This document shows, in pieces, positions 1 to 9,093 of a stretch of DNA of 9,093 nucleotides (position 1 is the stretch's first letter; each line of letters begins with the position of its first letter). The translations under genes and the position numbers were made by a program. This DNA comes from a virus. Its lineage: Duplodnaviria > Heunggongvirae > Uroviricota > Caudoviricetes. Location: IMG/VR virus record IMGVR_UViG_2529293223_000005; one strand, written 5' to 3'. The notes below the pieces were generated by a model. The model was not told the origin of the DNA and made no database searches. It worked only from the letters and a program-made list of their open reading frames with translations.

Positions 1-939
1 TTATTTGATTTCAATTTTGTCCCACTCCCTGCCTCTGTCATCACGATACTGTGATGCCATGGTGTCCGACTTGTGCCCGAGAAGATGTTGAGCAAACTTA
101 TCGCTTATCTGCTTCTCATAGAGTCTTGCAGACAAATTGCGCAACTCGTGAAAGGTAGGTGGATCCCCTTCGAAGGAAAGACCTGATGCTTTTCGTGCGC
201 GCATAAAATACCTTGATACTGTGCCGGATGAAAGCGGTTCACGACGAGTAGATGCAATTATGGTTTCTCCGCCAAGAATCTCTTTGCATTTATCAAGTGT
301 TTCCTTCATTGATATCCCGAGAGCATCAACATGCAATGTTGTAGGGATGGCAATTTTTACGCCTGTTTTGCTTTGCTCGACATAAAGATATCCATCTACG
401 ATATCAGACCACTTCATTTCGCATAAATCACCAACTCGTTGCCCGGTAACAACAGCCAGTTCCATTGCAAGTCTGAGCCAACATGGTGATGATTCTGCTG
501 CTTGATAAATTTTCAGGTATTCGTCAGCCGTAAGTCTTGATCTCCTTACCTCTGATTTTGCTGCGCGAGTGGCAGCGACCGGGTTTGTTGTTATATGGCC
601 TTCAGCTATTGCCTCTCGGAATGCATCGCTCAGTGTTGATCTGATTAACTTGGCTGATGCCGCCTTGCCCTCGTCTATGTATCCATTGAGCATTGCCGCA
701 ATTTCTTTTGTGGTGATGTCTTCAAGTGGAGCATCAGGCAGCCCCCTCCTTATTGCTTTAATTTTGCTCATGTAATTTATGAGTGTCTTCTGCTTGATTC
801 CTCTGCTGGCGAGGATTTTTTCGTAGCGATCAAGCCATGAATGTAACGTAACAGAATTATCACTGTTGATTCTCGCTGTCAGAGGCTTGTGTTTGTGTCC
901 TGAAAATAACTCAATGTTGGCCTGTATAGCTTCAGTGAT
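1..939 (-). pseudogene. int: Lambda-type tyrosine integrase (Int), 5'-truncated; codons for about residues 45-356 present, N-terminal ~44 codons missing at the IS911 junction
   Basis: Minus-strand translation ends ...HLLGHKSDTMASQYRDDRGREWDKIEIK, which I recognise as the lambda Int C-terminus including the catalytic Tyr region. The reading frame continues in frame upstream of the tracked Met (ITEAIQANIELFSGHKHKPLTARINSDNSVTLHSWLDRYEKILASRGIKQKTLINY) to position 939, where the IS911 terminal repeat begins. Stop codon at 1-3. Confidence 0.9.
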
Positions 940-1011
940 TGAAGTGGCACACTGAATTTGGCCACCTGAACAGAGGTGATATGCTCACCTCAGAACAACA
1001 CAGGTGTTCCA

Positions 1012-2180
<1,169 letters not shown>

Positions 2181-2255
2181 CCACTTCAGATTGAGGTAGC
2201 CTGAGTTTAACGGACACTCCTTCCTGAAATAGAATGGCATCAGAAGGAGCTAATA

Positions 2256-2558
2256 ATGAGCAGAAAAACCCAACGTTACTCTAAAGAGTTCAAAGCCGAA
2301 GCTGTCAGAACGGTTCTTGAAAATCAACTTTCGATCAGTGAAGGCGCTTCCCGATTATCCCTTCCTGAAGGCACTTTAGGACAATGGGTTACCGCCGCCA
2401 GAAAAGGGCTCGGTACTCCTGGTTCCCGCACGGTGGCTGAACTGGAATCTGAAATTCTGCAACTGCGTAAGGCGTTAAATGAAGCTCGCCTTGAGCGAGA
2501 TATATTAAAAAAAGCAACAGCGTATTTTGCACAGGAGTCGCTGAAAAATACGCGTTAA
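2256..2558 (+). CDS. IS600 OrfA (HTH transposase N-terminal protein)
   Basis: 100-aa ORF MSRKTQRYSKEFKAEAVRTVLENQLSISEGASRLSLPEGTLGQWV...ERDILKKATAYFAQESLKNTR. RBS AGGAG lies 7 nt upstream. A7G slippery run at 2507-2514. Confidence 0.85.
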   Translation: MSRKTQRYSKEFKAEAVRTVLENQLSISEGASRLSLPEGTLGQWVTAARKGLGTPGSRTVAELESEILQLRKALNEARLERDILKKATAYFAQESLKNTR

Positions 2559-2593
2559 TCGAACAATGGCGACAACAATTTCCCATTGAAGCG

Positions 2594-3412
2594 ATGTGTC
2601 AGGTATTTGGTGTATCCAGGAGCGGTTATTACAACCGGGTACAGCATGAACCCTCAGACAGAAAACAAAGTGATGAGCGGCTAAAACTGGAGATTAAGGT
2701 GGCACATATCCGCACTCGCGAAACATATGGAACCCGGCGGCTCCAGACGGAGCTGGCAGAGAATGGCATCATCGTTGGTCGTGACCGACTGGCACGTCTT
2801 CGTAAGGAGCTAAGGCTACGCTGTAAGCAGAAACGCAAGTTCAGAGCGACTACGAACCCGAACCACAATCTGCCAGTTGCGCCAAATCTGCTGAACCAGA
2901 CGTTCGCTCCTACAGCACCAAATCAGGTCTGGGTGGCGGACCTGACGTATGTTGCCACACAGGAGGGATGGTTGTACCTCGCTGGCATCAAAGATGTTTA
3001 TACGTGCGAAATTGTCGGCTACGCCATGGGAGAGCGCATGACAAAAGAGCTGACAGGTAAAGCCCTGTTTATGGCGCTCAGGAGCCAGCGCCCACCTGCC
3101 GGGCTAATCCACCACTCTGATCGAGGTTCACAGTACTGCGCATACGATTACCGGGTCATACAGGAGCAGTTTGGTCTGAAAACATCAATGTCGCGTAAAG
3201 GTAACTGTTACGACAACGCTCCGATGGAAAGCTTCTGGGGAACGCTGAAAAATGAGAGCCTGAGCCACTATCGTTTTAATAACCGGGATGAAGCCATCTC
3301 AGTAATACGGGAATACATTGAGATTTTCTACAATCGTCAGCGTCGTCACTCTCGTCTGGGGAATATCTCCCCGGCAGCCTTCAGGGAAAAATATCATCAG
3401 ATTGCTGCTTAA
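2594..3412 (+). CDS. IS600 OrfB (DDE transposase catalytic domain), expressed as OrfAB by -1 frameshift
   Basis: 272-aa ORF with IS3-family transposase motifs (..HHSDRGSQYCA.., ..RKGNCYDNAPMESFW..), in the -1 frame relative to orfA. Confidence 0.85.
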   Translation: MCQVFGVSRSGYYNRVQHEPSDRKQSDERLKLEIKVAHIRTRETYGTRRLQTELAENGIIVGRDRLARLRKELRLRCKQKRKFRATTNPNHNLPVAPNLLNQTFAPTAPNQVWVADLTYVATQEGWLYLAGIKDVYTCEIVGYAMGERMTKELTGKALFMALRSQRPPAGLIHHSDRGSQYCAYDYRVIQEQFGLKTSMSRKGNCYDNAPMESFWGTLKNESLSHYRFNNRDEAISVIREYIEIFYNRQRRHSRLGNISPAAFREKYHQIAA

Positions 3413-3535: not shown

Positions 3536-3817
3536 TCAGAAAGGACAGGGGGAGAATTTTCTCTCCCATTCTTCTTCCGCCCGAGCATAGGCGATCGCTG
3601 AGATATAATCGTTGTACGCCTCTTCAGCTTTTTCGCCAGTGAGTGCCAGTTGGGCTTCTTTGGGTAAAAAAAGGCTGCTCATAAGCAATGGTTTATCGGG
3701 GAACATGCTGATAAGCTCCTGCGCCCGATCATCAATCCATTTATCCTTTTCATCCTGAATATGCTGATTAACCCAGCGACGCTCCTCTATGCGGTCGCAG
3801 GTGAGGTATGCGTTCAT
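3536..3817 (-). CDS. Small acidic protein, candidate Gam-like host-nuclease (RecBCD) inhibitor
   Basis: 93 aa with AGGAG 7 nt upstream of the ATG. The N-terminus MNAYLTCDRIEERRW resembles the start of the short form of lambda Gam (MNAYYIQDRLEAQSW) as I recall it; size and operon position fit. Similarity fades after about 25 residues, so the call is tentative. Confidence 0.45.
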   Translation of the reverse strand: MNAYLTCDRIEERRWVNQHIQDEKDKWIDDRAQELISMFPDKPLLMSSLFLPKEAQLALTGEKAEEAYNDYISAIAYARAEEEWERKFSPCPF

Positions 3818-4130: not shown

Positions 4131-4343
4131 TCAGGCTGGTGAGATTAACGGTTGGCCTTTATGGTTCAGGTAAACTTCGATTGCATCTGAAATAATGCGG
4201 ATTTTTTCAATCAGTGAATGTGCGTAAAGTGCATTATTAACGTTAGCTGACGCCATGTAATAACGCCCGTTGTAAAGAATTGCTGTACCGGGTTTAACGT
4301 CCTCGCGAGAAACTAATGCGGTTCCGTAGTGAGGTTTGAGCAT
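4131..4343 (-). CDS. Hypothetical small protein (70 aa)
   Basis: ORF with a strong RBS (GGAGGA about 7 nt upstream of the ATG). Follows a structured intergenic hairpin. No family recognised. Confidence 0.5.
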   Translation of the reverse strand: MLKPHYGTALVSREDVKPGTAILYNGRYYMASANVNNALYAHSLIEKIRIISDAIEVYLNHKGQPLISPA

Positions 4344-4734: not shown

Positions 4735-5052
4735 CTATAGTTGTTTTTCCATGCGATCGAATTCAGCAATGTAGGCTTCCTTGAATGCAGCTGCTTTTTT
4801 GCCGGTGAAGCCCATCACCAGAAAAACGAAGCCGTTTTTGGTGATTTGGTAGGCGTTATAGGTATTGCCTCGGTGTTCGAATTTAACCCGCGAAAAGTTG
4901 CGGGTTAAGAATTGCTCAGAGCATTCGAGGGATTCTATTTTCTGAACAACATGGTGATGCTGCTTGCCAAAAAACTCAGCAATCGAAATAGAAGTAGTGA
5001 CGGCGCGACCATTTTCGATGGTTACGTCAGGGTGAGAAAGGGTAGTAGCCAT
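4735..5052 (-). CDS. Rha-family phage regulatory protein (Phage_pRha-like domain)
   Basis: The C-terminal half (ISIAEFFGKQHHHVVQKIESL...YQITKNGFVFLVMGFTGKKAAAFKEAYIAEFDRMEKQL) fits the Rha-family pattern as I remember it (FGK.H.NVLR.I, L.MGFTG.KA..FKEAYI..F..ME). The likely start is the internal ATG at 5050-5052 (MATTLSHPD...), which has GAGGA 7 nt upstream. The ORF-track start at 5211 has no RBS and would overlap the terminator. Confidence 0.7.
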   Translation of the reverse strand: MATTLSHPDVTIENGRAVTTSISIAEFFGKQHHHVVQKIESLECSEQFLTRNFSRVKFEHRGNTYNAYQITKNGFVFLVMGFTGKKAAAFKEAYIAEFDRMEKQL

Positions 5053-5216
5053 AATGACATCCTCAAGTGATAAGTTAATTAACTCACCACCAGAGGTGCT
5101 AATCTCATGGGTGGTGAGACGCACAGGGTTAGCACTACCGGTCACTCGAGAACCCGGCCAGCCTTGCGGCTGCCCCGCACGCCTCACCATAATTTGAATG
5201 TGGCTGTGCATTACGC

Positions 5217-5241
5217 ATAAAAAAACCGCTTCAGCGCGGTT
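5217..5241 (-). terminator. Intrinsic terminator on the leftward (minus-strand) transcript
   Basis: The minus-strand RNA reads AACCGC-GCUGAA-GCGGUU followed by UUUUUUUAU (plus-strand A-run at 5219-5225). It lies about 165 nt upstream of the Rha-like start and is directly preceded on the same transcript by a second GC-rich hairpin at 5262-5281. Confidence 0.5.
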
Positions 5242-5599
5242 ATGCGCTCGAGTAACTTTCGGGGTGCTAATCCCGGCACCCGTTTTATGAGGTGTTCGCC
5301 AAATATAGCCCCGACATCACACGCAGTCAATATCGTCCTTTCTCGGAAATGCTTTGGCGGTGCCGCCTGCACCCCAAAACATTCCCTGTATTGGTCAGCG
5401 CCAACTTCCTGCCAGTGTTGCCCGTTCTCACGCCGTTCTCGCTCTCGCGCGGGGATACTCTCTCATCGACCGGATCGCACCCGATGATACAGCACGTTTA
5501 CGTGTAGGGGTCTAAACAGGTCATTGACGCTGTAAAGCTCCAGATTGTTAAAGAGCATTTTGCGGCGGGTTAAGTCGCGCCGTACGACTGATTTATGTA

Positions 5600-5614
5600 G
5601 CCCTGTGTCAGGGC
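5600..5614 (-). promoter_or_regulatory. boxB-like RNA hairpin (candidate nutL-type site) on the leftward leader
   Basis: Minus-strand RNA GCCCU-GACAC-AGGGC has the same 5-bp stem as lambda boxB (GCCCU-GAAAA/GAAGA-AGGGC) with a pentaloop. It lies 15-30 nt downstream of the candidate leftward promoter. A boxA-like GCUCUUUAA occurs about 45 nt further downstream (plus 5548-5556). Confidence 0.35.
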
Positions 5615-5637
5615 GCGATGTTTCTGGCTTGGGTAAA

Positions 5638-5666
5638 ATATAATAAGCGCAACTGACCGCAGTCAA
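5638..5666 (-). promoter_or_regulatory. Candidate leftward early promoter (pL-like) with a possible overlapping operator
   Basis: On the minus strand: TTGACT (plus 5661-5666), 17-nt spacer, TTATAT (plus 5638-5643). The adjacent AATAGCAAGGCTAATA shares the 6/7-mers AATAGC and GCTAATA with the cI-cro intergenic region (7695-7734), which would fit a shared CI operator half-site. An AT-rich tract lies upstream. Confidence 0.3.
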
Positions 5667-5895
5667 TAGCAAGGCTAATAATTTAATTTTAATCTATGTG
5701 ATTGATTTTTAGATTAATTTATTTATGTAAAAAATATAAGCGAGGATAATGCAGGTGGTGAGTTATGGAGGATGCGCAAAGAAAAACCGGCGCTGAGGCC
5801 GGTTACTCTGTGTTAGATTTGGTGTGAGGGAACCCCCTGATAACACTAAGAAAAGCAGTGAACAGTCAAAGAGAACCCAGCGGGCTTGGTGGCTT

Positions 5896-5924
5896 TTGAC
5901 AAAAACATCGCCTGTAACTATAAT
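5896..5924 (+). promoter_or_regulatory. Consensus sigma70 promoter upstream of hicA, with overlapping palindrome
   Basis: TTGACA (5896-5901), 17-bp spacer, TATAAT (5919-5924): a perfect match to consensus. The -10 sits inside the palindrome AACTA-TAAT-TAGTT (5916-5929), followed by TTGCAA, a plausible autoregulatory operator. Confidence 0.6.
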
Positions 5925-5953: not shown

Positions 5954-6208
5954 GTGGGTATGGGGAAAGCAGATAAGCTACTGGAAAAGTTTTTAAACAG
6001 TAAAAAAACGTTTGAATGGGATGAGTTGGTCGTTTTGTTTTCCTCTCTGGGATATGTCAAAAAGGAAATGCAGGGCTCAAGAGTGCGGTTTTTCAATGCT
6101 GAAATCAACCACACCATATTAATGCATCGCCCACATCCAGAAAGTTATATTAAAGGTGGAACGCTGAAAGCGATTAAACAGAATCTGAAAGAGGCTGGGG
6201 TATTATGA
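5954..6208 (+). CDS. hicA: HicA-family toxin (type II toxin-antitoxin, mRNA interferase-like)
   Basis: 84-aa ORF (GTG start at 5954, or ATG at 5960). The layout ...WDELVVLFSSLGY...GSRVRF...MHRPHP...GTLKAIKQNLKEAGVL fits the HicA/YcfA family pattern. The stop overlaps the next ORF's start (ATGA at 6205-6208), and toxin-first order is the usual HicAB arrangement. Confidence 0.7.
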   Translation: MGMGKADKLLEKFLNSKKTFEWDELVVLFSSLGYVKKEMQGSRVRFFNAEINHTILMHRPHPESYIKGGTLKAIKQNLKEAGVL

Positions 6209-6549
6209 ATCATCTAAAATATAAAGGATATTTAGGTACAGTAGAACCAGATTTTGAAAATAATATCCTGTACGGAAAACTGGCGTTTATTCGAGACCTG
6301 GTAACTTATGAGGCTTCTACATTAGCTGAACTGGAACAGGAGTTTAAGACATCGGTTGAGCTGTATTTACAGTCTTGTGTGGAGGATGGAAAGGAGCCTG
6401 ATACCCCGTTTAAAGGTGTGTTTAACGTCAGACTTGATCCAGAACTGCATCGTCGGGTCGCTGAAATGGCGATGGAAGAAGATTTATCACTGAACGCCTT
6501 TGTTAATAAGGCGCTGGAAAAAGAAGTCAACCATCACACAGGGGCTTAA
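6205..6549 (+). CDS. hicB: HicB-family antitoxin (RNase H-like fold N-domain plus C-terminal ribbon-helix-helix DNA-binding tail)
   Basis: 114 aa. MNHLKYKGYLGTVEPDFENNILYGKLAFIRDLVTYEASTLAELEQEFKTSVELYL...PFKGVFNVRLDPELHRRVAEMAMEEDLSLNAFVNKALEKEV matches the HicB pattern (Y.GY.G.VE.D...G.......E..T..EL...F...V..YL; NVR+.PELH...A..A.....SLN.FV...L). Translationally coupled to hicA. Confidence 0.75.
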   Translation: MNHLKYKGYLGTVEPDFENNILYGKLAFIRDLVTYEASTLAELEQEFKTSVELYLQSCVEDGKEPDTPFKGVFNVRLDPELHRRVAEMAMEEDLSLNAFVNKALEKEVNHHTGA

Positions 6550-6703: not shown

Positions 6704-6735
6704 GCCAAAGTAAAAACAGGCTTGTTGATCAAGCC
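6704..6735 (-). terminator. Candidate intrinsic terminator for the cI transcript
   Basis: Minus-strand RNA GGCUUG-AUCAA-CAAGCC followed by UGUUUUUACUUU, about 200 nt downstream of the cI stop. Confidence 0.35.
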
Positions 6736-6936
6736 CATGTTCTTTAATGATTGAATCATTTTTCCTTGCTAAGTATTTCTTCCACTTGTTGTGTCAAGGA
6801 TTTGTCTTTGTTCATTTATGGCTCACTTGATTGCGACTGCTCCCCGCCCGCATTGGGCGAGGGTTCTCGGAGATTTTTCGCTGAAAAAGGAAATAAAATA
6901 GCCTCCCTGCAAGGTTATTGATATCATCCTGTGAGT

Positions 6937-7656
6937 TCAATCAAAAGTCTCATCATTCCACTGCGACTTTATGACCTTTCCGACAAACTGGCAGTTTTCG
7001 TTACACTCAATCATGTCGAATCGTGGGTTGAGTGGCTCCAGGTACGCTTTACCGCTCTCACGAATGAATCGTTTGAAGGTGAATTCATCGCCATTCATTC
7101 GGGCCACGCAAAAATCGCCATCCTCAATCTCCCGCTCAGGGTCAACGAGTATCAGCATCCCTTCGGGGAAACTGGGTTTACCACCCTGCGGCGCGGTCAT
7201 TGAATGCCCCTTGACCTCCAGCCAGAACGACCTGTCACTGGCTTTTGTGGTGGTGGAGATCCACTTAATCGCATCCTTTGCGGTGTACGAAAAATCATCC
7301 ATTGAGAAAGCTCCAGCCTGTACGCAGGAGAGTAACGGATATTCGTAATATTTCTCGAACAGGTTACGCCTGTTTCCCGGTGTGTGGGTACGAATACTGC
7401 GTAACAAATCACTCAGATCTGGATTAATTTCTTCCGCAGGAACCTGTAATAAAGCCGCAAACTTAAGGGTATTTTCAGTATTTAACGCAATTTTTGCGTT
7501 CAATAACTGACTAACAGCCCCCTGCGTTTTGAAGCCGAGGATATCTGCGGCTTTTTCCTGGCTTAGGGATAGCTGTTTCCGTTTTTCATCCCAGATTTTG
7601 CGCAGTCGTTCAGCGTTCTGGATGTCTTTGTCAGTAATTGTAATTTTCTTCGTCAT
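6937..7656 (-). CDS. cI: Lambda CI-like prophage repressor (N-terminal HTH domain plus C-terminal S24 LexA-like autopeptidase domain)
   Basis: The C-terminal half ([91 protein letters not shown]) is close to lambda CI as I recall it, including the Ser (GHSMTAP) and Lys (FTFKRF) catalytic dyad and an Ala-Gly cleavage site (VQAGAF). The N-terminal HTH domain is diverged. Start taken at ATG 7654-7656 (MTKKITIT...) with GGAGG 7 nt upstream; the ORF-track start at 7695 is an upstream extension. Confidence 0.9.
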
Positions 7657-7707
7657 AGTGCCTCCAATTTTATTAGCAACACAAATACTTATCAAATAGC
7701 TAGCCTG

Positions 7708-7735
7708 TTGACATTTAAATCAGGTAAGCTAATAT
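7708..7735 (+). promoter_or_regulatory. PR-like promoter for the Cro-like gene, within the cI-cro divergent control region
   Basis: TTGACA (7708-7713), 16-bp spacer, TAATAT (7730-7735), then GGAGG (7751-7755) and ATG at 7762. The region carries the palindromes TAGCTA/GCTAGC and ATTTAAAT, and AGCTAGCCTG / CAGGTAAGCT flank the -35. A weak-consensus candidate PRM (TAATAA -10) lies on the minus strand at about 7663-7700. Operators were not resolved. Confidence 0.5.
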
Positions 7736-7761
7736 CGGAAAATTGAAATGGGAGGATCTCT

Positions 7762-8001
7762 ATGACTCTTGACGAGTACTTGAGACAAAGCTCTATCAGA
7801 CAAGCCGATTTTGCGGCGATTGTTGGAGTTTCTCAGGGATTTGTCAGTGGGGGTATTACAGGGAGATACATGCCTCAGGGGCGGAAAGCCATTGAATGGG
7901 CAAAAGCTACAGACTGGAATGTAACTCCCCATGAACTAAACCCGCATGACTACCTAAACATGGAAGATGGTATTCCGCTTCATGTAAGGCAAACAGCCTG
8001 A
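7762..8001 (+). CDS. Cro-like HTH DNA-binding protein (Cro/C1-type), assigned by position and HTH motif
   Basis: 79-aa ORF divergent from cI, with a strong RBS and a helix-turn-helix signature (SIRQADFAAIVGVSQGFVSG). Confidence 0.6.
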   Translation: MTLDEYLRQSSIRQADFAAIVGVSQGFVSGGITGRYMPQGRKAIEWAKATDWNVTPHELNPHDYLNMEDGIPLHVRQTA

Positions 8002-8023
8002 TAACCCTCCATCGGAGGTGTGA

Positions 8024-8305
8024 GTGAACAGGCAAATCAAAACGGTTATGCCCGATCAGTACTGTGATGCTGATCGGGACTGGATACAGGAGCAATTGTT
8101 ACAGCTAGACCCGACCACCAGGGTAAAAATTGCAGCAGAGTACGCGAGAGTGTACCAGGAAGAGTGGGACAAGGAGCCTGTATCGTTCAGGAAGGGCAAC
8201 AGGGCAAGACGGAGCGCCAACACCCGGTTACGGGTGTATGTCCAGAAGTACGCGAGAGCCAGCCGTGGCTGGATGCTTTCGCCAGTAGCGATACGGAAGG
8301 AATAG
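8024..8305 (+). CDS. Hypothetical basic protein in the cII position (93 aa, GTG start)
   Basis: ORF starts 22 nt after the cro-like stop with GGAGG 5 nt upstream of the GTG. Arg/Lys-rich C-terminus (FRKGNRARRSANTRLRVYVQKYARASRGW). No similarity to lambda CII recognised. The RBS is half of a small inverted repeat (CCTCC-ATC-GGAGG at 8006-8018). Confidence 0.5.
   Translation: MNRQIKTVMPDQYCDADRDWIQEQLLQLDPTTRVKIAAEYARVYQEEWDKEPVSFRKGNRARRSANTRLRVYVQKYARASRGWMLSPVAIRKE

Positions 8306-8718: not shown

Positions 8719-9093
<375 letters not shown>

Follow-up and report, generated by a model that had tools for sequence, protein, structure and literature searches.

An IS-truncated prophage remnant carries a predicted lambda-built immunity switch keyed to a non-lambda operator word

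Introduction

Is the immunity region of this defective lambdoid prophage lambda's own, or is it a lambda-type switch that answers to other operators, and why is it still there? The question is raised by positions 6937-8023 of a 9,093-nt stretch of viral DNA (IMG/VR record IMGVR_UViG_2529293223_000005, Caudoviricetes), the whole of which is called the window here. A first-pass annotation of the window had described a lambda-like repressor autopeptidase domain joined to a diverged DNA-binding domain and a non-lambda Cro, and every element it named was found where it had been placed. The prophage is a remnant truncated on both sides by insertion sequences (IS911/IS600), with its rightward operon cut by a second IS911, and it carries no replication, lysis, or structural genes. 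The integrase had been called dead, and only a 256-aa C-terminal ORF of it is left, adjoining IS911/IS600. The same arrangement was absent from 5,426 complete E. coli genomes, which together with the IS911/IS600 content suggests that the host is Shigella. The exact OR sequence had no matches in a set of bacterial contigs with one genome per species, a probable consequence of Shigella and E. coli having just a single genome in that set.

Judged by its sequence, the region is a lambda-built phage switch keyed to a DNA word that is not lambda's. That it is a functional heteroimmune lambdoid immunity switch, sharing a common ancestor with lambda cI-OR-cro, is in our view highly probable.

Results

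Repressor

The homology, domain content, catalytic residues, mosaic joints, and operator geometry with its conservation were read directly from the sequences, and the coordinates are collected in Table 1. The cI gene was listed as an ORF spanning 6937-7695 on the minus strand, and its likely start is the ATG at 7656, since GGAGG lies 5 nt upstream. The encoded protein, which is identical to WP_000162429.1 of E. coli strain 48, scored 99.1 bits for Peptidase_S24 (PF00717) and 30.6 bits for HTH_3 against a cut-off of 23. At full length it aligned with the lambda repressor 3bdn (E=4e-74), and its DNA-binding domain alone (residues 2-82) matched 1lmb (E=6.4e-11). Identity with lambda CI was 50.6% overall, 36% over residues 1-93, and 64% over residues 103-239, so that the N-terminal DNA-binding domain is not lambda's, as had been claimed, while the described closeness of the C-terminal domain holds as clear homology but not as near-identity.

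The cleavage site Ala114-Gly115 (VQAG/AF) and the catalytic residues Ser152 (GHSMTAP) and Lys195 (FTFKRF), which align to Ala111-Gly112, Ser149, and Lys192 of lambda, are all intact, in agreement with the earlier reading. Glu34 and Asp38, the positive-control residues of lambda, are conserved too. Of the lambda operator-contact residues, the alignment shows Gln44 unchanged, with Gly in place of Ser45 and Ile in place of Asn55. In crystal structures of the lambda repressor-operator complex, Ser45 and Asn55 read operator positions 4 and 6, and these are the two positions that differ between the lambda half-site TATCACC and the half-site TATTAGC of the window. The region thus has the features of the lambda-CI type (LexA/S24), namely HTH_3, S24 with Ala-Gly and Ser/Lys, and a divergent cro with dyad operators; the features of imm-lambda specificity are missing from its half-sites, from the two replaced contact residues, and from the 36% identical DNA-binding domain.

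Table 1. Features of the immunity region and its surroundings (positions in the window)
Feature	Coordinates	Strand	Description
Kil-family cell-division inhibitor gene	4131-4343	-	PF27398 KilR; phrog_294, E=2.8e-32
PL candidate	5637-5666	-	TTGACT (5666-5661), 18 nt, TATATT (5642-5637)
Weak promoter-proximal OL operator candidate	5642-5658		AATAAGCGCAACTGACC; 4.3 bits
Strong OL operator candidate	5664-5680		CAATAGCAAGGCTAATA; centre about -42 of PL, overlapping PL -35
Possible distal operator-like site	5735-5751		TATAAGCGAGGATAATG; 9.4 bits; invariant in three loci
hicA-hicB toxin-antitoxin insert	5954-6549	+	in the lambda rexAB position; own consensus promoter 5896-5924
Terminator-like hairpin	6716-6738	-	downstream of cI, before hicB
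cI repressor	6937-7656	-	239 aa; HTH_3 DNA-binding domain and Peptidase_S24 autopeptidase domain
cI codons 103-239 (hinge and C-terminal domain)	6937-7348	-	left flank of the mosaic joint; 95% nucleotide identity with heteroimmune sibling Stx phages
Exchangeable immunity cassette	7349-8008		cI DNA-binding domain, OR/PRM/PR, cro; no DNA similarity to phi346
PRM candidate	7667-7695	-	TTGATA (7695-7690), 17 nt, TAAAAT (7672-7667)
OR3 candidate	7671-7687		TATTAGCAACACAAATA; 2-bp overlap with PRM -10, as in lambda
OR2 candidate	7694-7710		AAATAGCTAGCCTGTTG; overlaps PRM -35 by 2 bp and PR -35 by 3 bp
PR candidate	7708-7735	+	TTGACA, 16 nt, TAATAT; predicted to drive cro and downstream genes
OR1 candidate	7718-7734		AATCAGGTAAGCTAATA; overlaps PR -10
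cro analogue	7762-8001	+	79 aa; all-helical YdaS-type HTH protein
Gene in the cII position	8024-8305	+	93 aa; phrog_852; outside the exchangeable cassette

Operators and promoters

The first-pass annotation had not seen the repeated lambda OR operator, and our search likewise found no lambda operator sequence in the window. The candidate operators share a half-site of about (T/C/A)A(T/A)TAG(C/T), with TATTAGC as its best form. The three OR dyads are separated by spacers of 6 and 7 bp, the same as in lambda (17-6-17-7-17), and counted from OR3 the offsets of PRM -10, PRM -35, and PR -35 are identical to lambda, with PR -10 shifted by 1 bp. The start predicted for PRM, near 7660, would leave a leader of about 4 nt ahead of the cI ATG. 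In the window, OR2 matches only weakly (12.1 bits); its right half-site, CAACAGG, is weakened by a lineage-specific A>G change at 7707.

The layout was assessed by imposing the lambda geometry beforehand on the 105-bp cI-cro spacer and comparing it with dinucleotide-preserving shuffles. The best register scored 31/42 against 24.7 +/- 1.3 in the shuffles, none of 2000 reaching 31, and p=0.001 was obtained when the test was repeated with 1000 shuffles. The same test recovers the annotated operators of lambda, and when the spacers were left free the best solution for the window was still 6 and 7. No direct repeats were found in the cI-cro spacer.

The recurring words AATAGC and GCTAATA had been taken as a shared motif of this region and the leftward promoter. 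They lie at 5665 and 7695 and at 5674 and 7728, respectively, with the reverse complement TATTAGC at 7671, and the observation stands insofar as they are half-sites of the OR and OL dyads; as bare words they do not clearly exceed chance (AATAGC, both strands counted, 6 seen and 5.0 expected; GCTAATA, 4 and 1.3). The dyad TATTAGCN3GCTAATA with at most 3 mismatches gave 4 matches against 0.34 expected, a number reached in 0 of 200 shuffles, and all 4 fall in the two regulatory regions. These regions are AT-rich, and a naive comparison of their 7-mers with the rest of the window was dominated by AT-rich words and did not single out the half-site. It was replaced by the fixed-geometry shuffles and an out-of-sample matrix scan.

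In that scan, a matrix built from the OR half-sites alone gave its highest score outside OR to the site at 5664-5680, 15.8 bits where the 99.9th percentile was 7.3. Orthologues of this site are present in the related loci L001, L003, L018, L020, and L021, and in L001 and L003 the orthologue is the best non-OR site despite different intervening cargo genes. The weaker OL candidate lies 22 bp from the strong one, centre to centre, and its counterpart scores much better in diverged relatives. The PL candidate is directed at the Rha/Ash, kil, and gamL genes. A boxB-like hairpin in its leader (5602-5616) was rejected, the loop being different in intact phages and no N gene being present.

Comparison with relatives whose CI DNA-binding domains are 80% (L020), 74% (L018), and 43% (Rac-SA53) identical showed that these relatives retain the half-sites but have other central triplets and spacers. 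Within the half-site, the positions that they conserve (A2, T4, A5, G6) extend beyond the promoter hexamers. In L018 and L020, as in the window, the repressor recognition helix reads TQGAVSQ(L/F); in Rac-SA53 it reads SQGTVSQY. The lambda geometry was not significant when imposed on Rac-SA53, phi346, or L020; with free spacers the same half-sites were recovered in Rac-SA53 (7/8) and in L020 (5/7, the L021 spacer being identical). The 6/7 geometry is conserved only in the closest group and L018. The earlier proposal of a different immunity specificity on a lambda-like scaffold thus appears to be borne out by the half-sites, the diverged DNA-binding domain, and the lambda geometry.

Cro analogue

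The Cro protein had been described as a 79-aa protein unrelated to lambda's, and an all-helical model of YdaS type was indeed obtained (AlphaFold, pLDDT 92.9). The HTH quoted at that time, QADFAAIVGVSQGFVS, corresponds to residues 14-29 and coincides with helices 14-21 and 25-33 of the model. No significant alignment of lambda Cro (PF09048, alpha+beta fold) to the window protein was found. The top PDB folds were YdaS, P22 c2, 434 Cro, and Xfaso-1 Cro, the best structural match being CP-933P YdaS (8co2; TM 0.70, 34% identity), which phmmer also reached with E=3e-4; the protein further matched phrog_35 (E=6e-16). For the window protein itself, Pfam listed only a sub-threshold HTH_3 match (19.4 vs 23), and PF15943 (YdaS) was not among the matches. 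A single-sequence search returned 2 proteins only; the family came into reach with a small profile, and most of the homologues retrieved in this way carry PF15943. The position of the gene, first under PR and opposite the repressor, also fits the YdaS family. In CP-933P, footprinting and reporter assays have identified YdaS as the Cro of a CI-like repressor (PMC8630535).

The recognition helix of the window protein, QGFVSGGIT, carries the substitution V31G, which is unique to the lineage of the window. Position 31 is a conserved hydrophobic one, and Gly was found there in 0 of 67 family members. Since P65L is common to the closest relatives, V31G is the only lineage-specific change in Cro.

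Mosaic structure and distribution

Comparison with the sibling Oslovirus phage phi346/PA2 by blastn gave 95% identity over 6923-7348, no relationship over 7349-8008, and 84% from 8009 onward. In the unrelated slot, this sibling has TATCACC-like operators together with a lambda-type Cro and a DNA-binding domain resembling that of lambda. The mosaic that had been postulated is therefore real, and the sibling Stx phages, rather than lambda, are the informative comparison. By this alignment, 7349-8008 appears as an exchangeable module joined at cI codon 103 to the C-terminal domain of heteroimmune Stx phages.

The alignment with known immunity groups that had been recommended was carried out by tblastn against 50,697 phage records. 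The DNA-binding domain was at least 99% identical in 23 records, all of them Stx2 phages, and below 60% in all others, including lambda (38%) and HK620/mEpX2 (about 43%). None of the classical types 434, 21, HK022, P22, and 933W was among the 40 of 89 matches listed. For Cro, only the same 23 Stx2 phages (95%) and Rac-SA53 (41%) were found. Going by these matches, the immunity module is not new, as GenBank already contains it in live Stx2a phages. One of them, Lys12581Vzw, whose DNA-binding domain is identical to that of the window, was obtained by induction of E. coli O145:H28 and can lysogenise strains of K-12 (PMC6986202). The reported binding of lambda CI to the VT2-Sakai and Stx2-I operators concerns other immunity types (Sedhom and Solomon 2023, PMC10742460).

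The Oslovirus Stx2a phages (Lys12581Vzw, NC_049917; the O121-type LC6454xx) have the same module with operators in the same places, and their DNA-binding domain is 100%, whole CI 98.7-100%, and Cro 95-97% identical to those of the window. They are complete and inducible, with a helicase/primase replication module and stx2, whereas the window holds an IS-truncated remnant. They also carry restriction-modification and SocA/Panacea cargo between cI and OL, and the V31G and OR2 changes belong to the window copy.

Neighboring genes

The hicAB pair is a neighbor of the switch and not one of its components. The gene at 8024-8305 was rejected as a CII or YdaT analogue, having no Pfam or NCBIfam match and no PDB match by sequence or fold; its AlphaFold model shows three helices (pLDDT 74), and the label "CII" that it bears comes from automatic annotation only.

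State of the remnant

Compared with the E. coli strain 48 copy, which is 2.6% diverged, cI differs at 19 synonymous and 0 non-synonymous codons, counts too small for a firm claim of selection, and 15 of the 19 fall within the C-terminal segment, whose history may differ from that of the rest. The gene is identical over 720 bp to that of the closest relatives L010, L013, and L014; in L011 and L012 one or two positions differ, including a single-base indel at 7518. Lineage-specific changes were found in OR2, the PRM spacer, and the Cro recognition helix. Downstream of PL, gamL and the kil-family gene are still present, and the presence of kil in the leftward operon is a likely reason for keeping the repressor. 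These data are compatible with the suggestion that the repressor may persist mainly to keep the leftover early genes silent.

Discussion

How the switch would work can be set out by analogy, which is how its binding, activation, cleavage, and present role are treated here. CI dimers would bind the three 17-bp pseudo-palindromes between cI and cro, as well as one strong and one weak operator at the leftward promoter about 2 kb away. Occupancy of OR1 and OR2 would block PR, and the OR2 dimer, abutting the PRM -35, would probably activate PRM, since Glu34 and Asp38 are conserved. Binding of OR3 over the PRM -10 would give negative autoregulation. The operators of the repressor should also be targets of the YdaS-type Cro; the recognition helices of the two proteins share their first residues, Q-G-x-V-S. 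Induction would follow when RecA stimulates the repressor to cut itself at Ala114-Gly115 through its Ser152/Lys195 dyad. In its present state, the module probably only represses the remaining PL genes (kil, gamL, Rha/Ash) and confers superinfection immunity.

The likeness to lambda covers the full-length repressor homology, the S24 autopeptidase with its Ala-Gly and Ser/Lys, the divergent cI and cro, and the three 17-bp operators with their 6- and 7-bp spacers and PRM -10/-35 and PR -35 offsets. It also covers a cI message from PRM that is leaderless or nearly so (by its predicted start in the window) and a second operator set at a leftward promoter about 2 kb off with cargo genes between. Unlike lambda, the window has half-sites, contact residues, and a DNA-binding domain of its own, an all-helical YdaS-type Cro in place of an alpha+beta one, and an OL with one strong operator in an OL2-like position and one weak operator at 22-bp spacing. 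It has no recognizable cII and no N, and hicAB replaces rexAB in the opposite orientation.

PaaR2-YdaS-YdaT of CP-933P in E. coli O157:H7 (PMC8630535) resembles the window in its CI-like repressor and divergent YdaS-type Cro, its PRM, PR, and PL analogues, the toxin-antitoxin pair beside the repressor, and its residence in a cryptic prophage. It differs in an operator consensus of GTTTAGTAA repeats (PMC8630535), in a toxin-antitoxin pair co-transcribed with the repressor, hicAB lying on the opposite strand behind a promoter of its own, and in YdaT being a CII analogue, to which the third gene of the window is unrelated. The nearest other pair among the phage records is RacR-YdaS of Rac-SA53 (KU052037; by tblastn, DNA-binding domain 46% and Cro 41%). 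It has similar half-sites and a three-operator layout, and its repressor likewise guards a kil gene in a defective prophage, but RacR lacks the S24 autopeptidase domain and the spacers are 7 and 8 bp.

This last resemblance bears on the label of the switch. It is possible, if on balance rather doubtful, that the window does not hold a distinct immunity but belongs to a broader, existing cross-immune group with L018, L020, and the Rac-SA53-type RacR/YdaS. Their half-sites are nearly the same (TATTAG[C/T], CAATAG[T/C]), and the recognition helix is nearly invariant (TQGAVSQ/SQGTVSQ). Against a common group stand the identities of the DNA-binding domains (74-80% for L018 and L020, 43% for Rac-SA53), the differing spacers of L020 (5/7) and Rac-SA53 (7/8), Cro proteins just 40-63% identical, and a Rac-SA53 repressor without S24 and hence without the domain that carries lambda-type cooperativity. 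Such membership would in any case alter the label and not the mechanism. A different challenge concerns the operators themselves, which might be by-products of promoters and AT-rich composition, the real operators being other repeats, like those put forward for CP-933P next to its dyads. OR1 and OR2 overlap PR -10 and -35 and OR3 overlaps PRM -10, so that conservation could be partly that of promoters; the naive k-mer enrichment was driven by composition; and CP-933P has two overlapping repeat systems (PMC8630535). This reading is nevertheless most improbable, as composition-matched shuffles of the 105 bp essentially never reach the observed score, the conserved half-site positions run past the hexamers while the central triplets vary, the OR-trained matrix picks out the PL site 2 kb away, and the cI-cro spacer holds no direct repeats.

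The truncation of the remnant on both sides, the loss of its replication, lysis, and structural genes, and the lineage-specific changes in OR2, the PRM spacer, and the Cro recognition helix could also mean that cI-cro is an inert relic, decaying and unexpressed in a dead prophage, its intactness an accident of recent inactivation. We regard this as very unlikely. The repressor gene is full-length with all catalytic and cleavage residues, it shows solely synonymous differences from the diverged E. coli copy, and it is identical to those of L010, L013, and L014 while OR and cro changed; moreover, PRM, PR, and the three operators are still recognizable, and the potentially toxic kil and gam still lie under PL. 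The points that weigh against a functional heteroimmune switch are the weak OR2, an OL unlike that of lambda, the AT-rich regions, the 16-nt PR spacer, and the few substitutions available for the selection argument.

A more specific version of the functional switch is offered tentatively, as something we hold to be conceivable but short of probable. In the host lineage, likely Shigella, the module would have become a one-way lock, in which cI under purifying selection holds kil, gam, and Rha/Ash silent and gives incidental immunity to a clinically important class of Stx2a phages, while Cro is being disabled by V31G and OR2 has drifted. The module would at the same time be a natural specificity variant of the lambda repressor, in which operator positions 4 and 6 have changed in concert with their readers (Ser45 to Gly, Asn55 to Ile) and the operator/promoter scaffold has otherwise stayed the same.

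That immunity cassettes are swapped at the repressor hinge to give mosaics, and that defective prophages keep their repressors (RacR, DicA, PaaR2), is well known; the finding has no conceptual novelty, and its significance is modest. What it adds is a testable, predicted operator map for the immunity type of Stx2a phages from STEC O121, O145, and other serotypes. In these phages, induction efficiency and toxin output have been connected with the repressor type (bioRxiv 10.1101/2024.03.06.583675, 10.1101/2021.11.24.469858), and operators for any CI type are not described in those two studies. The locus also offers a close natural comparison in which the specificity of a lambda repressor changes while the architecture of the switch stays fixed. 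Bacteria with the remnant are predicted to be immune to the matching Stx2a phages, which bears on their conversion to toxin producers.

Immunity module and its joints

The likely start of cI is the ATG at 7656, with GGAGG 5 nt upstream, giving a product of 239 aa with the Pfam domains HTH_3 (30.6 bits) and Peptidase_S24 (99.1 bits). In a comparison with solved structures, the full-length product aligned with the intact lambda repressor (3bdn, E=4e-74), and residues 1-82 alone matched the lambda N-terminal domain (1lmb, E=6e-11). In the global alignment, it was 50.6% identical to lambda CI overall, 36% over residues 1-93 and 64% over residues 103-239, and Ala111-Gly112, Ser149, and Lys192 of lambda corresponded to Ala114-Gly115, Ser152, and Lys195. 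The lambda positive-control residues Glu34 and Asp38 were conserved (SQEKAAD), which would fit activation of PRM, the cI promoter, from OR2.

The cro-like protein showed no significant similarity to lambda Cro. It matched phrog_35 “transcriptional repressor” (E=6e-16) and the solved YdaS of CP-933P, a cryptic prophage of E. coli O157:H7 (E=3e-4). Its model, built from a 68-sequence alignment, was all-helical and confident (pLDDT 92.9), with helices 14-21 and 25-33 being exactly the helix-turn-helix quoted in the first-pass annotation. The best structural matches were CP-933P YdaS (TM 0.70), P22 c2, 434 Cro, and Xfaso-1 Cro, and no lambda Cro chain was among the 50 matches listed. Most homologues carry Pfam YdaS (PF15943) and a few also the P22-Cro or lambda-Cro families; therefore the protein belongs to the wider Cro superfamily, outside lambda's branch.

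Compared with lambda, only old divergence was seen across the immunity region. Compared with phi346, a heteroimmune sibling Stx phage of the PA2 type in the same genus, Oslovirus, the left joint fell at cI codon 103, the hinge, and the right joint just beyond the cro stop. The slot of phi346 contains a lambda-like DNA-binding domain, a lambda-type Cro, and TATCACC-like operators, and 7349-8008 is, judged by its sequence, a classical exchangeable immunity cassette. The mosaic reading of the first-pass annotation is thus correct, and its other statements on the two proteins also held: the C-terminal domain is nearer lambda CI than the N-terminal one, with the Ala-Gly site and Ser/Lys dyad present, and the Cro is not lambda's, its nearest structure being CP-933P YdaS.

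Features of the prophage remnant and its switch
Feature	Position	Strand	Remark
Lambda-type Int ORF	1-771	-	C-terminal, 256 aa
IS911 and IS600 transposase genes	976-3412		
gamL	3536-3817	-	
Kil-family division inhibitor	4131-4343	-	
Rha/Ash-type regulator	4735-5211	-	
C4 antisense RNA	5107-5194	-	78.6 bits
IsrK Hfq-binding RNA	5219-5295	-	61.6 bits
Predicted PL leader hairpin	5602-5616		GCCCU-GACAC-AGGGC
Leftward promoter-like element	5666-5637		TTGACT, 18 nt, TATATT
Weak matrix match	5642-5658		4.3 bits
Top matrix match outside OR	5664-5680		15.8 bits
Distal matrix match	5735-5751		9.4 bits; operator role uncertain
hicA-hicB promoter	5896-5924	+	TTGACA-17 nt-TATAAT
hicA-hicB	5954-6549	+	
cI	6937-7656	-	
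Predicted OR3	7671-7687		
Predicted OR2	7694-7710		
Predicted OR1	7718-7734		
cro-like gene	7762-8001	+	
93-aa conserved protein gene, cII position	8024-8305	+	phrog_852
Second IS911	from 8755		8755-9093 in the window
phi346 comparison, left block	6923-7348		95% DNA identity
phi346 comparison, middle block	7349-8008		no DNA similarity
phi346 comparison, right block	from 8009		84% DNA identity
Window-lineage-only substitution	7688		PRM spacer
Window-lineage-only substitution	7707		OR2 right arm, position 4; 13.7 to 12.1 bits
Window-lineage-only substitution	7853		Cro Val31Gly, recognition helix

Predicted right operator

AATAGC occurred at 5665 and 7695, and GCTAATA at 5674 and 7728 and, on the opposite strand, at 7671; each word is a predicted half-site of a 17-bp dyad operator. 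When at most three mismatches were allowed, the pattern TATTAGCNNNGCTAATA occurred four times versus 0.34 expected, and every occurrence fell either between cI and cro or upstream of the leftward genes. To avoid fitting, the lambda layout (three 17-mers with gaps of 6 and 7 bp) was imposed on the 105-bp spacer, and the register with the most self-consistent set of six half-sites was chosen. The best register scored 31/42 versus a mean of 24.7 ± 1.3 in dinucleotide-preserving shuffles, of which 0/2000 reached 31, and p was 0.001 when the test was run again with 1000 shuffles. Lambda itself, run through the same procedure, returned its annotated OR3, OR2, and OR1, and gaps of 6 and 7 bp were still best when the spacers were freed (3 to 9 bp).

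The -10 and -35 of PRM (TAAAAT and TTGATA; TAGATT and TAGATA in lambda) and the -35 of PR, the cro promoter (TTGACA; TTGACT in lambda), lie at the same offset from OR3 as in lambda, and the PR -10 (TAATAT; GATAAT in lambda) is 1 bp off. The strong/weak arm pattern of the six half-sites (TATTAGC / TATTTGT, AAATAGC / CAACAGG, AATCAGG / TATTAGC) also follows that of lambda (TATCACC / TATCCCT, TAACACC / CAACACG, TACCTCT / TATCACC). With layout, promoter offsets, and arm pattern as in lambda, the predicted OR is thus a position-for-position homologue of lambda OR, but its consensus half-site differs from lambda's at positions 4 and 6.

Related but distinct switches were collected via the Cro family. 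Relative to the window, the CI DNA-binding domain and Cro were 80% and 63% identical in L020 and L021, 74% and 57% in L018, and 43% and 40% for RacR/YdaS of the Rac-type prophage Rac-SA53, which lacks the S24 domain. The cI-cro spacers of these loci have diverged with half-sites retained; the central triplets vary by locus (OR3 AAC/AAT/GAT/TTT, OR2 TAG/GCA/GTG/CTG, OR1 TAA/TGC/TGC/GAG), as do the inter-operator spacers. The central bases of lambda-type operators are not directly read, and conserved half-sites around varying centres would be the pattern expected of such operators.

The repressor recognition helix was nearly invariant (TQGAVSQ(L/F) in the window, L018, and L020; SQGTVSQY in Rac-SA53), and the Cro helix of the window, L018, and L020 starts with the repressor's Q-G-x-V-S, which parallels the Q-S common to lambda CI and Cro. 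In published structures of the lambda repressor with its operator, Gln44 reads position 2, Ser45 position 4, and Asn55 position 6. In the window's cI, Gln44 is kept, Ser45 is replaced by Gly, and Asn55 by Ile, and operator position 2 is unchanged between lambda and the window. With contact assignments taken from lambda, the two altered contact residues would match the two altered operator positions.

Predicted leftward operators

A weight matrix made from the OR half-sites only was scanned across the whole window, where the 99.9th percentile of all 17-mers was 7.3 bits. The top match outside OR (CAATAGCAAGGCTAATA) overlaps the -35 of the leftward promoter-like element, and its ortholog was the top non-OR site both in Lys12581Vzw, an Stx2a phage, and in a prophage of E. 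coli, despite different cargo between this site and cI. The recurring words are predicted half-sites of 17-bp dyads in both regions where the first-pass annotation had noticed them. The weak match lies 22 bp nearer the promoter; its counterpart in the diverged relatives scored 10.4-13.5 bits at the same spacing, and the predicted OL therefore consists of two adjacent operators, with the promoter-proximal one poor in the window's group. In L018 (1392-1430), L020 (575-613), and L021 (168-206), OL has a pair of good neighbouring operators with centres 22 bp apart. The cargo slot of L018 also contains a ParE-type toxin pair, and cro is followed there by a YdaT gene, an arrangement that links the switch family to the PaaR2/YdaS/YdaT type of CP-933P.

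The predicted leader hairpin, given in the table as the transcribed strand, resembles lambda/P22 boxB, and its loop is UACAC in intact relatives; no N-like gene was found. The C4 and IsrK matches, both at Rfam gathering level, overlap the start of the Rha/Ash ORF and the sequence directly upstream of it, which suggests that an antirepressor-like gene of the PL operon is under RNA control of the P1-c4 / Gifsy-1 IsrK type. Residues 5-60 of the ORF, where Pfam finds Phage_ASH, fall on the C4 RNA, and its N-terminal portion may therefore be non-coding.

State of the switch in the remnant

The window is a piece of E. coli/Shigella-type chromosome, identical to a 20-kb stretch of assembly GCA_002968245.1 that adjoins the pectinesterase gene ybhC, a position that is the lambda attachment site. 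It contains a short prophage remnant with insertion sequences on both sides and about 5.3 kb of early-region genes between them; genes for replication, lysis, and structural proteins, as well as xis, are missing from the window. Int had been called dead, and indeed only the C-terminal ORF of int survives and xis is absent; the element is unable to excise or grow. The second IS911 copy cuts the rightward operon, and its orfA differs from that of the first copy at two residues. The early-region remnant thus lies between direct copies of IS911 and resembles a composite element.

The hicA-hicB pair occupies the lambda rexAB position but is oriented towards cI, and its promoter is a perfect sigma-70 consensus (12/12). 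Same-immunity phages carry a methyltransferase, a BsuBI-type endonuclease, and SocA/Panacea there, and the slot is therefore a hotspot for defence/addiction cargo. The 93-aa protein has no family annotation, and its homologues occur in Salmonella, Serratia, and Yersinia prophages; its three-helix model was of moderate confidence (pLDDT 74), a fold search of the model against the PDB gave no match, and the label “CII” comes solely from automatic annotation of one phage.

The cI gene differed from its counterpart in E. coli strain 48 at 19 codons, all synonymous, so that the two proteins are identical; from Lys12581Vzw it differed by 13 synonymous and 3 non-synonymous changes. Among the closest-relative loci, L010, L013, and L014 showed zero differences over the 720 bp of cI, and L011 and L012 each had one or two, among them an indel of a single base at 7518. 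The window differed from 9/9 relatives at the three substitutions in the table. Cro residue 31 aligns with the core residue Leu50 of lambda CI; the 67 family members have W, V, M, or A at this position, and 0/67 have Gly. Leu65 of Cro is also unusual (Pro in 57/67) but is common to the closest relatives, so it is not lineage-specific. The repressor has thus been conserved, while Cro is probably weakened and OR2 appears slightly degraded, a contrast between cI and cro that involves small numbers, with most synonymous changes falling in the separately inherited C-terminal segment. It is plausible, as first proposed, that the repressor persists to silence the remaining genes, particularly kil and gamL under PL.

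Relation to known immunity modules

The stretch 6923-8299 was 97.5% identical to many Stx2a-converting phages, and related copies occur in many STEC chromosomes. In 23 phage records, the DNA-binding domain was 100% and Cro 95% identical to the window's; one of these is Lys12581Vzw (NC_049917), a phage obtained by induction of an O145:H28 strain and able to lysogenise K-12 (PMC6986202). Outside these records, no DNA-binding domain at least 60% identical was found among the best 40 of 89 matches; identity was 38% to lambda and about 43% to the HK620/mEpX2 group. Therefore the module fits no classical immunity group among the matches listed, which answers the comparison of the N-terminal domain proposed in the first-pass annotation, and the non-lambda specificity claimed there agrees with the changed half-site.

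Two preprints sort Stx-phage CI into clades or types, tied to induction and toxin yield, and no CI type has its operators described in either (10.1101/2021.11.24.469858; 10.1101/2024.03.06.583675). Among experimentally studied systems that have a YdaS-type Cro, PaaR2/YdaS/YdaT of CP-933P is the nearest analogue, and its operator word differs from the window's (PMC8630535). The module is an ordinary heteroimmune lambdoid immunity module already present in sequenced Stx2a phages. Beyond that, the present analysis gives an explicit map of its operators and promoters, shows that its architecture corresponds base for base to lambda OR with the half-site changed, places the mosaic joints exactly, and brings out the contrasting evolution of cI and cro in this remnant.
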